Shown here: positions 36,337 to 40,298 of the stretch, piece by piece
Layout: each line of letters opens with the position of its first letter
How positions within the stretch are numbered: the first letter of the stretch is position 1
Position numbers and translations under genes: made by a program
Source of the DNA: Escherichia coli
Lineage (GTDB): Bacteria > Pseudomonadota > Gammaproteobacteria > Enterobacterales > Enterobacteriaceae
Direction: 5' to 3' (one strand)
Assembly: GCF_003334305.1 (NCBI RefSeq)
Contig: NZ_QOWS01000008.1
Length of the DNA: 64,000 bases
Notes under the pieces: model-generated
The model's input: the letters and a program-made list of their open reading frames with translations, nothing else
Database searches by the model: none
Told to the model about the DNA's origin: nothing

Positions 36337-37395
36337 TTATTCAGGCGTAAAGTGGCGTAAATGTTGTACCGTGGCAAGCCACGCTGCCACCCAGCCAATC
36401 ATCGAGCATACCAGCAGCAATAGCAGGCATTCATCGAACGATAAGCCATTGATATCAAACTTCGTTCCGAAAACCTGTGCCACTTCTGCAACCGCCGATG
36501 ACAAACGCAGTACCAGAATTTCTGACAAAATTAATGACAGCAATGCGCCAGAAAATCCCAGCAGTGCGCCACCATACAGGAACGGGCGAAGGATGAAACC
36601 ATCCGTCGCACCAATCAGTTTCTGCACGTTGATGGAGTCACGGCGAGCAAAGATGCTCAGACGTACGCTGTTGCCGATGACGAGGAACACTGCCGCCACC
36701 ATCAACACGCCGATCATCGCCGAAACGCGCCCGACCAGCCCGGTCAACGCCGCCAGACGGGCAAACCAGCTGTCATCCATCCGCACTTCGTCAATGCCGT
36801 TAATCTGCGTGATACGATCACGCAGCGTATTGAGTGATTCCGTCCCCTGAAAATCGAGTTTCGGGATCACCACCGCCACTGCCGGAAGCGGGTTTTCTTC
36901 CAGCATATCCAGCGCACCACCAAAACCAGACCAGTTACGGAACTCGCCCAGTGCGTCTTCACGAGAAAGATAGTTCACTTTCTCCACGCCTTGCTCGGCC
37001 TGCAACTGTGCCACCACGCCCGCAGCGGCGTCATCGTCCAGCGTTTTTTGCAAGTAAACAGTGATTTGCGGTGACGGATAATACTGCGTCGCCGCCTGAT
37101 TAACGTTTTTGTACACCATATAACAGACGCTGGGCAGCGTCAGGGAGATGGCGATAACCATCACCGTTAAAAACGTGGCGAACGGTTTGCTTTTCAGATC
37201 CTGCAATGCGCCGTGGAAGGCATAGCGCACCTGTTCGTTGAAAACGTTGGTTTTACGATTTACCGGTTTTGGCGAGGATTTCGCGCGTTTCGGGGCGTTA
37301 CGACCGCCGTCGCCAGAGCCGCCGACCGATTTACGGAAGCGATCAAGACGCCCGCCAAACTGCCGAATATGATTGATTGCATCGCGCTTATTCAT
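36337..37395 (-). CDS. ftsX: cell division ABC-transporter-like permease
   Basis: Recognised protein starts [26 protein letters not shown] at ATG 37395 (352 aa); overlaps ftsE 3' end by 8 nt. Confidence 0.94.
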
Positions 37396-38056
37396 GGCCC
37401 ACGCCTCCATGCAAGTGACCATCGCTCAGGGTGAGCATGCGATAGGAACGCCGTGAAATCAGGTTGATGTCGTGCGTTGCCATCAATACGGTTACCCCAA
37501 CGCGGTTAAACTCTTCAAACAGACGTAGAATCCCTTCCGACAACGCGTCGTCCAGGTTACCGGTCGGTTCGTCCGCCAGCAGTACCGCGGGCTTATTCAC
37601 CACCGCGCGGGCAATGCCAACACGCTGTTGTTCACCGCCGGAAAGCTGAATAGGGAAGTTCTTCGCTTTGTCCAGTAGCCCGACTTTATCCAGTGCCGCC
37701 GACACCCGGCGACGAATATCGTCACCGCTGGCACCAGCGATAATCAGCGGGATCGCCACGTTATCGTAGACAGTACGGTCCATCAGTAGATGGTGATCCT
37801 GGAAAATCATGCCAATCTGGCGGCGCAGAAACGGAACTTCACGGTTTTTCAGACGCGTGATGTCATGGCCGCTAAACCAGATTTTCCCGGCGCTGGGCCG
37901 CTCAATCCCACAGATCAGCTTCAGGAGGGTACTTTTCCCTGCGCCGGAATGACCGGTCAGAAACGCCATCTCACCCGGCTGCATATGGAACGTAACGCCC
38001 TGCAGCGCCTGTCTCCCACCGAGATAAGCCTTGCTGACATGTTCAAAGCGAATCAT
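37388..38056 (-). CDS. ftsE: cell division ATP-binding protein
   Basis: 222-aa [50 protein letters not shown]. Confidence 0.96.
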
Positions 38057-38058
38057 TG

Positions 38059-39552
38059 TTAATCCTCTCGGGCAAAAAGTGCCTCTATAAAGTCGTCCGC
38101 CTTAAACGGACGCAAATCCTCAATACGTTCGCCGACACCAATGTAGCGGATAGGGATACCAAACTGGTCAGCCACCGAGAAAATTACCCCGCCTTTCGCC
38201 GTGCCGTCCAGTTTCGTTAGCGTGATGCCGGTTAAGCCAACAGCTTCGTGGAACAGTTTGGCCTGGCTTACCGCGTTCTGCCCGGTGCTGGCATCAATAG
38301 TCAGCATAACTTCATGCGGCGCTTCAACGTCGAGTTTCTTCATCACGCGGACGATTTTCTTCAACTCTTCCATCAGATGCGATTTGTTCTGCAGACGTCC
38401 GGCGGTATCGGCAATCAGGACGTCGATATTACGCGCTTTAGCTGCCTGAATGGCGTCGAAGATAACAGAGGCGGAATCCGCACCAGTATGCTGGGCAATC
38501 ACCGGAATATTGTTGCGCTGACCCCAGACCTGAAGCTGTTCAACCGCTGCTGCACGGAAAGTATCGCCCGCCGCCAGCATCACCGATTTACCCTGCTGCT
38601 CAAACTGACGCGCCAGCTTACCAATCGTCGTGGTTTTACCCACACCGTTGACGCCCACCATCAGGATCACGAACGGCGTTTTACCTTCAACATTCAGCGG
38701 CTCATCGACTTTCGCCAGAATCTCGCCCATCTCTTCTTTCAGCAGGCCATAGAGCGCCTCGGCATCACGAAGCTGCTTGCGGGATGCGCCTTCCGTCAGA
38801 TTGGTGATAATTTTACGTGTGGTTTCCACGCCCACATCGGCGATCAACAGCTGTTCTTCCAGCTCCTCAAACAGATCATCGTCGATTTTTTTACCGCGGA
38901 ACAGGCTGATAAATCCGGAACCGAGATTTTCTTTGGTTTTTAACAGGCTGCGTTTCAGGCGCGCGAAGAAACCTTCTTTGGTCGGTTTTTCCTGCTCCTG
39001 AGCGATTTCTTCCACCGGCTGCTCTTCTACCGGAGGAACCACCATCACCGCCTCTTCTGCCGCTTCGGCAGCCAGCGCCTGTGCTTCCAGCTCTTCGTCG
39101 GTGATTTCTTCTTTAGCCGCTTCTTCTTCCGCCGCTTCGACAATCTCTACGGTTTCCGCTTCAGCCTGCCACTCTTCTGGCGAAACCTCTTCGGCGTTGA
39201 CGTCTTCCGGCAACGGCAGCTCTTCACGCTCGATAGCCACTGGCTCCGGCGTTTCTTCTACGACCGGTTCCGGCTGTGCAACGACTTCCGCTTCAGGCTG
39301 CGCTTTTTCACTTTCAGCAACCTGTTCAGTGACTTCCACAACGTCGGCAGCAAAAGTTTCCGCCTCGGCTTCAGTATGCGCCTGCGGCTGCTCTTCGACG
39401 GCTTGTTCAGAAGCCTTCACAGGCTCTTGCGCCTGAACGATTTCTTCTACAACCGGTTGTTCATTCTGAACTTCTGTCTCTTTTTCCGGGGTCTGCTCTT
39501 TTTGACCAAAGCCCAGCCAGGAAAAAAAGCCACGTTTTTTTTCTTTCGCCAT
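38059..39552 (-). CDS. ftsY: signal recognition particle receptor
   Basis: 497-aa ORF; acidic repetitive N-terminal A domain followed by SRP-GTPase NG domain (GVNGVGKTT, DTAGR). Confidence 0.96.
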   Translation of the reverse strand: MAKEKKRGFFSWLGFGQKEQTPEKETEVQNEQPVVEEIVQAQEPVKASEQAVEEQPQAHTEAEAETFAADVVEVTEQVAESEKAQPEAEVVAQPEPVVEETPEPVAIEREELPLPEDVNAEEVSPEEWQAEAETVEIVEAAEEEAAKEEITDEELEAQALAAEAAEEAVMVVPPVEEQPVEEIAQEQEKPTKEGFFARLKRSLLKTKENLGSGFISLFRGKKIDDDLFEELEEQLLIADVGVETTRKIITNLTEGASRKQLRDAEALYGLLKEEMGEILAKVDEPLNVEGKTPFVILMVGVNGVGKTTTIGKLARQFEQQGKSVMLAAGDTFRAAAVEQLQVWGQRNNIPVIAQHTGADSASVIFDAIQAAKARNIDVLIADTAGRLQNKSHLMEELKKIVRVMKKLDVEAPHEVMLTIDASTGQNAVSQAKLFHEAVGLTGITLTKLDGTAKGGVIFSVADQFGIPIRYIGVGERIEDLRPFKADDFIEALFARED

Positions 39553-39701
39553 TTGCGACTACACTCCTCGCTGTTGCTTCATGGCACAGCGTTAACGCTA
39601 TGTACATAGCAGCTAAAAAAATGATGAAATAGTCTATCACTTAACTTAATTCACATCACCGCCTGCAAGTATGTGTTATCTGGCGGATTGAGCAATTTAT
39701 C

Positions 39702-40298
39702 ATGAAAAAACCGAATCATTCCGGCAGCGGCCAAATCCGCATTATTGGCGGGCAGTGGCGAGGCCGTAAACTCCCGGTTCCTGATAGCCCAGGTCTGCGC
39801 CCCACCACCGACCGCGTACGCGAAACGTTGTTTAACTGGCTGGCTCCGGTCATTGTTGACGCCCAATGTCTGGATTGCTTCGCCGGGAGCGGCGCGCTGG
39901 GGCTGGAAGCGTTATCGCGCTACGCTGCGGGGGCCACGTTGATTGAGATGGATCGCGCAGTTTCTCAGCAGTTAATTAAGAATCTGGCGACACTAAAAGC
40001 AGGCAATGCACGCGTGGTGAACAGCAACGCAATGTCATTCCTGGCGCAAAAAGGCACACCGCATAATATCGTGTTTGTCGATCCACCGTTCCGCCGTGGC
40101 TTGTTAGAAGAGACGATAAATTTACTGGAAGATAACGGCTGGCTGGCTGACGAAGCCCTGATTTATGTCGAAAGCGAAGTCGAAAACGGTCTGCCCACTG
40201 TTCCGGCAAACTGGTCATTACATCGGGAAAAAGTGGCGGGTCAGGTGGCTTATCGGCTGTATCAACGCGAAGCACAAGGAGAAAGTGATGCTGATTAA
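39702..40298 (+). CDS. rsmD: 16S rRNA (guanine966-N2)-methyltransferase
   Basis: 198-aa ORF MKKPNHSGSGQIRIIGGQWRGRKLPVPDSPGLRPTTDRVRETLFNWL; DPPF motif. Confidence 0.94.
   Translation: MKKPNHSGSGQIRIIGGQWRGRKLPVPDSPGLRPTTDRVRETLFNWLAPVIVDAQCLDCFAGSGALGLEALSRYAAGATLIEMDRAVSQQLIKNLATLKAGNARVVNSNAMSFLAQKGTPHNIVFVDPPFRRGLLEETINLLEDNGWLADEALIYVESEVENGLPTVPANWSLHREKVAGQVAYRLYQREAQGESDAD

Follow-up and report, generated by a model that had tools for sequence, protein, structure and literature searches.

The window, by which we mean the whole 64-kb stretch of DNA that was analyzed, carries on its minus strand a 497-aa open reading frame (38059..39552) that we identified as ftsY, the gene for the SRP receptor. 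In addition to the ORF itself, this identification is based on a profile and on matches to proteins of known structure. In an NCBIfam profile search, residues 222-493 of the window FtsY matched the TIGR00064 equivalog with a score of 386.3 bits against a cutoff of 260.7, and PDB chains 5gad_l and 2yhs_A were matched end to end by the window protein. The gene context is that of the ftsY-ftsE-ftsX operon, with ORFs at 38059-39552, 37388-38056 and 36337-37422, all on the minus strand, and with rpoH downstream. rsmD (ORF 39702-40298, plus strand) is divergent from ftsY, and the two genes are annotated in this way in matching genomes as well. Both the ftsY annotation and this region were found in all 5426 of the 5426 complete E. 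coli genomes. Approximately 16% of E. coli genomes are at least 99% identical to the window across the 5' region of ftsY, and strains cq9 and 1-62 are 100% identical to it there.

Two observations concern the wider window and the neighboring gene. The small RNA RyhB (Rfam RF00057, 17010-17074, minus strand, 83.1 bits against a gathering score of 55) is the sole gathering-level Rfam match in the 64-kb window, and a tRNA search of the same window gave no genes. The 90%-identity cluster that contains the window FtsY (11145 members) also includes 222-aa FtsE proteins (P0176, P0178-P0180, P0188). Their presence is presumably a clustering artefact, and perhaps reflects fused or read-through ftsY-ftsE gene calls, which we suspect because a gap of just 2 nt (38056/38059) separates ftsY from ftsE here.

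The 5' end of ftsY encodes the A domain, residues 1-197 (38962..39552, minus strand), which we delimited by composition, by charge, by the starts of NG constructs and by the limits given in PMC5094494 and PMC2928010. A repetitive acidic segment had been placed at 38900-39552 by a sequence-only reading of this DNA; that segment does lie at the 5' end of the minus-strand ftsY, but its start overshoots by approximately 60 nt into the N domain. The identification of the segment as the acidic, low-complexity FtsY A domain is supported, as is its description as E/A/P/V-rich: residues 1-197 contain 27.9% E, 15.2% A, 12.2% V, 8.6% Q and 8.1% P, their net charge is -46 compared with -4 for the NG domain, and their entropy per 40 aa is 2.8-3.1 bits compared with about 3.6-3.9 bits in NG. 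GAA accounts for 40 of the 197 A-domain codons and for 73% of the Glu codons, compared with 64% of the Glu codons in neighboring genes. Purines make up 64% of the A-domain coding strand, and the AT skew of the plus strand over the segment is -0.36 to -0.40 (T over A).

Three features, all on the minus strand, make up this architecture. Residues 1-14 form the putative basic amphipathic lipid-binding motif MAKEKKRGFFSWLG (39511..39552), recognized from its sequence and kept in the relatives P0002 and P0003. The acidic low-complexity core, defined by composition, spans residues 18-190 (38983..39501). At the A/N junction lies the membrane-targeting amphipathic helix FFARLKRSLLKTK, residues 195-207 (38932..38970), which was likewise recognized from its sequence and is conserved across relatives; its stretch GFFARLKRSLLKTK, which includes Phe196, is present in the window FtsY and conserved in relatives. 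PDB constructs limited to NG begin at residues 194-201, such that the A domain is absent from the NG crystal constructs. Homopolymer runs T7 and A8 (39522-39528 and 39535-39542, minus strand) were observed just downstream of the start codon, in ftsY codons 4-10, which encode the lipid-binding motif KEKKRGFFS.

These features have published counterparts. NMR and FRET of the K-12 protein indicate that the A domain is disordered, that its N-terminus and the junction helix bind lipids, and that its acidic center acts as a flexible tether through non-specific, electrostatic binding to SecYEG; lipid binding by Gly8-Lys18 was reported in the same work, and Asp152-Ala161 is the only transiently helical stretch reported in the A domain (PMC5094494). 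The membrane-targeting function of the junction helix is described in PMC2928010, which also states, citing Eitan and Bibi 2004, that FtsY depletion is complemented by FtsY-NG+1, a form in which Phe196 is all that remains of the A domain. The A domain has been called 'non-essential', and the N-terminal domains of FtsY 'low conserved' (PMC2780400).

Repetition and antisense reading frames in the A-domain code

The A domain had been described as encoded by reiterated GAA/GCN-rich units, visible on the plus strand as repeats such as TTCTTC, GGCTTC and CAGCGC. The first of these hexamers is indeed enriched, with 6 copies in the segment compared with 1.7 +/- 1.3 in dinucleotide shuffles; there is a single copy each of GGCTTC and CAGCGC. 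The fraction of recurring 8-mers in the A-domain segment is about five times the value for the NG domain. The fraction of recurring 6- to 12-mers is far above that of dinucleotide shuffles (z 5-6) and the same as that of codon shuffles (z 0.0-0.8). Autocorrelation of the DNA and of the protein revealed no lag beyond multiples of 3, with maximum z values of 2.6 and 2.3 inside an envelope of 95th-percentile shuffle maxima of 3.4 and 3.3 (codon and residue shuffles). The only periodicity in the A-domain DNA is the 3-nt codon period.

Tandem Repeats Finder (TRF), run at its lowest threshold (minimum score 30), reported a single array of 33 nt at 39106-39138 with a period of 15 and 2.2 copies. This sole tandem microrepeat, read on the minus strand, is GAAGCGGCGGAAGAA/GAAGCGGCTAAAGAA/GAA, encoding EAAEE EAAKE E. 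A repeat search detected dispersed direct repeats of 12-26 nt that are 72-94% identical and whose spacing is, with one exception, a multiple of 3. These are recurring strings of Glu and Ala codons, not copies of a unit. No head-to-tail unit with a period across the segment was found by TRF, autocorrelation or k-mer statistics, and we rejected the tandem-repeat reading. A-domain repetition is fully explained by codon composition, and the proposed reiterated units are thereby reduced to one 33-nt microrepeat.

The same region carries two long ORFs on the plus strand, one of which had been singled out as spurious. That ORF (39101..39436; 111 aa, GTG start, 33% Ser) has third codon positions that coincide with those of ftsY; its frame is open from 39002 to 39433, with a stop codon at 39434-39436. 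The other ORF (39376..39609; 77 aa) lies in the codon-for-codon antisense frame. This in-register antisense frame contains no stops across the A domain and three across the whole 1.5-kb ftsY. When A-domain codons were shuffled, an antisense ORF of at least 111 aa arose in 95% of trials, with a median of 171 aa, compared with 41% of trials with the same number of shuffled NG codons. No Shine-Dalgarno sequence and no NCBIfam match were found for either antisense ORF, unlike ftsY, which carries GAGGAG upstream, and a promoter/terminator scan of the segment found no promoter-like site. Of the 21 polymorphisms in 39101-39436, 13 are synonymous in the antisense frame too, a count that carries no information because that frame shares third codon positions with ftsY. 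Composition accounts for the antisense ORFs, and the earlier description of 39101..39436 as spurious stands. A 231-aa antisense ORF (38248-38943, plus strand) was also observed in the NG-coding part, again in the codon-for-codon antisense frame. Such long in-register antisense ORFs are a usual artefact of rare TTA, CTA and TCA codons on the sense strand.

Length variation and constraint among E. coli strains

The segment had also been proposed as a potential site of length polymorphism. Comparison of A-domain length among strains bore this out, modestly. Seven intact E. coli ftsY alleles encode in-frame proteins of 458, 474, 493, 495, 497 (two make-ups) and 498 aa. The 498-aa form is the FtsY of O157 and of most genomes, and 497 aa is the length in K-12 and in the window. 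Every indel in the seven alleles is a multiple of 3 and falls within alignment columns 125-175. All natural in-frame E. coli indels seen in nucleotide alignments thus lie in one hot zone at about residues 125-175 (39028..39179, minus strand).

Allele frequencies were estimated from two systematic samples of 60 genomes and from summary counts over 5426. Among 60 sampled genomes, 19 have a region of the same length as in the window and in 37 (about 62%, the 498-aa form) it is 3 nt longer; there are single cases of -6, -12 and -117 nt relative to the window sequence. The K-12-type -3 allele was present in 10 of 60 sampled genomes. Compared with the 498-aa form, one GAA is absent from the window at 39028/39029 (PPV-EEQ rather than PPAEEEQ), and 3 nt are absent from K-12 at 39080-39082 (ET-AL rather than EAQAL). 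The FtsY of K-12 (PDB 2yhs and 5gad; A domain in PMC5094494) and that of the window are products of the same gene with the same length of 497 aa and the same architecture, and the DNA of this region is approximately 98% identical. Their lengths agree only by coincidence, since two single-codon indels compensate for each other, and a few substitutions also separate them. Identical protein length in ftsY does not imply identical indel make-up.

Larger deletions were found in roughly 0.2-0.7% of the 5426 genomes. A 160-nt query covering the hot zone had no match in 8 of the 5426 genomes and a partial match in 5 more, and hot-zone identity was below 95% in 23. Overall, two single-codon variants are common and lineage-wide, and deletions flanked by repeats are rare; the region is not hypervariable. 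Two apparent expansions were rejected. In the remaining genome of the 60, that of strain A33, the region is 6 nt longer than in the window and ftsY is annotated 'frameshifted'; the difference resolves into four single-base insertions at homopolymer A/T tracts plus the +3 allele. These insertions, including those in the T7 and A8 runs, are probably assembly or sequencing errors, and a real frameshift is possible. FtsY WXP39172.1 owes its 516 aa to an aberrant upstream start, an artefact caused by a frameshift in the A8 run.

The junctions of the deletions coincide with short repeats. The 15 nt missing from AR_0017 (39124-39138) correspond precisely to one unit of the TRF microrepeat. The 72-nt deletion (39061-39132) of strains GF130, A37 and Q5 falls between two copies of the direct repeat GAAGCGGCNGAAGA, entry D12 of the repeat search, whose left copy (39125..39138, minus strand) and right copy (39053..39066, minus strand) are 72 nt apart. 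Carriers of this allele were counted as one-piece matches to a 64-nt junction query, which gave three genomes with differing hosts and submitters. The right copy of GAAGCGGCNGAAGA also overlaps the 9 nt (39058-39066) that, by alignment, are deleted in the 495-aa allele WP_022646225.1; two unrelated records carry this allele. The largest deletion, 120 nt (39060-39179) in strain PSJ-07, leaves a 458-aa FtsY and falls between two copies of the 8-nt direct repeat CAGAAGAG (left copy 39172..39179, minus strand; partner 39052-39059); with a 64-nt junction query for this deletion, split two-piece matches of normal genomes rank above one-piece ones. Judging from the junctions, an origin of the in-frame deletions by replication slippage or microhomology-mediated deletion fits.

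To gauge constraint, we compared polymorphism in the two parts of the gene across the seven alleles. The pN/pS ratio is 0.16 in the A domain compared with 0.02 in NG. Synonymous diversity is similar in the two (pS of 0.18 and 0.16, respectively), and non-synonymous diversity is about ten times higher in the A domain than in NG. The A domain is a coding sequence under purifying but relaxed selection. Since a ratio of 0.16 is well under 1, its sequence is not free to drift. The relaxed constraint is consistent with the published disorder, charge-based action and non-essentiality of the domain.

FtsY relatives and known systems

The length of the N-terminal extension was compared in the 135 closest 50%-identity representatives whose NG domain is complete. 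It varies between 5 and 945 aa with a median of 168, and it is shorter than 25 aa in 8 of the 135. Alignable sequence among relatives is limited to the basic N-terminal motif and the junction helix; the center cannot be aligned. In Thermus and Thermotoga FtsY (PDB 1rj9 and 1vma), NG is homologous to that of E. coli and the acidic extension is wholly absent. Relatives that do without it mark the extension as an accessory module.

True periodicity does exist in the family, in 11 of 123 extensions (for example P0003, P0120, P0026 and P0077). The extension of P0003 (Oceanimonas sp. GK1, WP_014290776.1) is built from a 12-aa unit, AEEARLAAEAKA, with a lag identity of 0.60 and a z value of 15.7, and that of P0120 from the 8-aa unit EEAEARAR. 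The Oceanimonas A domain resembles that of E. coli in its homologous position, its acidic and Ala-rich composition, its conserved ends and its variable length, but it consists of true head-to-tail repeats whereas the E. coli A domain lacks a period. In some lineages of the FtsY family, then, the A domain grows through duplication of a unit; in E. coli it does not.

Contingency loci and VNTRs offer a further comparison. E. coli ftsY shares with them short direct repeats in a coding region and in-frame length change, probably by slippage. Unlike them, it has no defined unit and a copy number of about 2 at most, and its variation is rare, in frame and not phase-variable, with no switch function implied.

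A separate observation concerns about 20 of the 135 closest representatives (640-675 aa), in which a hydrophobic domain of approximately 350 aa takes the place of the acidic A domain (P0013, P0015, P0023, P0027, P0028, P0033-P0036, P0042-P0045, P0048, P0059, P0088 and P0094). Those with names come from Methylococcales, Methylococcaceae and Methylovulum MAGs, and some are annotated 'cytochrome oxidase assembly family protein/cell division protein FtsY'. In P0013, residues 4-310 match Pfam COX15-CtaA (heme A synthase family; E value 6e-70), fused in one ORF to SRP54_N and SRP54; a locus of this type lies at 268-2292 of L009. Judging by titles and abstracts, the papers found in a literature search do not deal with a fusion of FtsY and COX15. 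Going by its domains, such a protein would be a permanently membrane-anchored SRP receptor.

Interpretation of the segment

We consider it very probable (roughly 0.93) that the segment is simply the code for the disordered acidic A domain, and that its skewed codon pool explains the pseudo-repeats, the antisense ORFs and the tolerated in-frame indels. What we observed here covers gene identity, composition, aperiodicity, the indel alleles with the repeats that flank them, the relaxed pN/pS, and the origin of the antisense ORFs as by-products. The literature supplies disorder, lipid and SecY binding and non-essentiality. From these we infer that the alleles arose by slippage and persist because they are tolerated.

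In the mechanism that we propose, residues 1-14 and helix 195-207 would bind anionic lipids, and the negatively charged center would serve as a flexible, electrostatic tether to positively charged loops of SecY. A-domain function would then rest on bulk charge and disorder and not on exact sequence, which would explain why a few codons (GAA, GAG, GCN, GTN, CAG and CCG) dominate it. A codon pool skewed in this way would generate many short in-frame direct repeats together with TTC-rich strings on the opposite strand, and it would leave antisense frames free of stops, which are seen as long spurious ORFs. It would also provide substrates for replication slippage or microhomology-mediated deletion, leading to occasional in-frame indels. 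Tolerance of such indels would result in strains that differ slightly in A-domain length, and in-frame losses of up to 40 residues would survive in natural isolates because function lies in bulk charge and disorder.

Other explanations of the same segment fare poorly. A true VNTR or contingency-type locus, with a defined, reiterated unit and frequent changes in copy number, would find its best footing in the 15-nt unit present 2.2 times at 39106-39138, one unit of which is missing in strain AR_0017, and in the tandem-repeat A domains of relatives such as Oceanimonas sp. GK1, with its 12-aa unit, and the other periodic extensions among the 11 of 123. Against it, repetition in E. coli equals that of codon shuffles with no domain-wide periodicity, and the window A domain scores a z of 2.7 compared with a 99th-percentile shuffle value of 3.7. 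Moreover, variation is rare, with at least 80% of the hot region retained in 5413 of 5426 genomes, and most differences between strains are single-codon, lineage-wide alleles. This explanation is already largely refuted, and we regard it as highly improbable. Much the same holds for the proposal that the GAA-rich stretch was shaped by a function at the nucleic acid level, such as an RNA structure, an internal promoter or a signal for mRNA localization or translation rate. The mRNA folds slightly better than its shuffles, with a z-score of -1.87, a stability that 3 of 100 shuffles match, and the coding strand is 64% purine. That z-score is marginal, however, the segment has no promoter-like site, and no Rfam match was obtained at gathering or E-value thresholds, the best being a eukaryotic snoRNA at an E value of 0.98. 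In addition, the 73% share of GAA among Glu codons is close to the 64% of neighboring genes, and the region is unalignable between genera. We found the Rfam search, the promoter/terminator scan and the fold z-score unconvincing as a case for RNA-level function and rejected it; the chance that it accounts for the stretch is slim indeed.

There is next to no prospect that either antisense ORF on the plus strand (39101..39436 or 39376..39609) represents a genuine overlapping gene. The lengths of 111 and 77 aa and the 13 of 21 synonymous polymorphisms in the frame of the former might suggest one, but the synonymous excess is inherited from ftsY through common third positions, and 95% of codon shuffles match or exceed 111 aa. 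Neither ORF has a Shine-Dalgarno sequence, a promoter-like site or a family match. The 111-aa product is of low complexity (33% Ser), and natural deletions take out 5-40 codons of its ORF. Finally, the clustering of indels in one 150-nt zone that overlaps Asp152-Ala161 could reflect selection as well as mutational bias. We think it very unlikely that the zone at 39028-39179, instead of being a passive site of slippage, is a 'tether-length dial' under selection. If it were, recurrent in-frame deletions of 3-40 codons would alter the reach of FtsY or its affinity for SecY, and membrane-protein targeting would then differ between lineages.

The FtsY A domain is already known and is textbook knowledge in the SRP field, as are its acidity, disorder and dispensability, so the observation is an ordinary one. 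Annotators should not call genes from the long antisense ORFs here or from those in the gene-wide in-register antisense frame. In the 458-aa and 474-aa alleles, natural strains already provide deletion mutants, which show how much loss of the acidic tether E. coli can bear in the wild.
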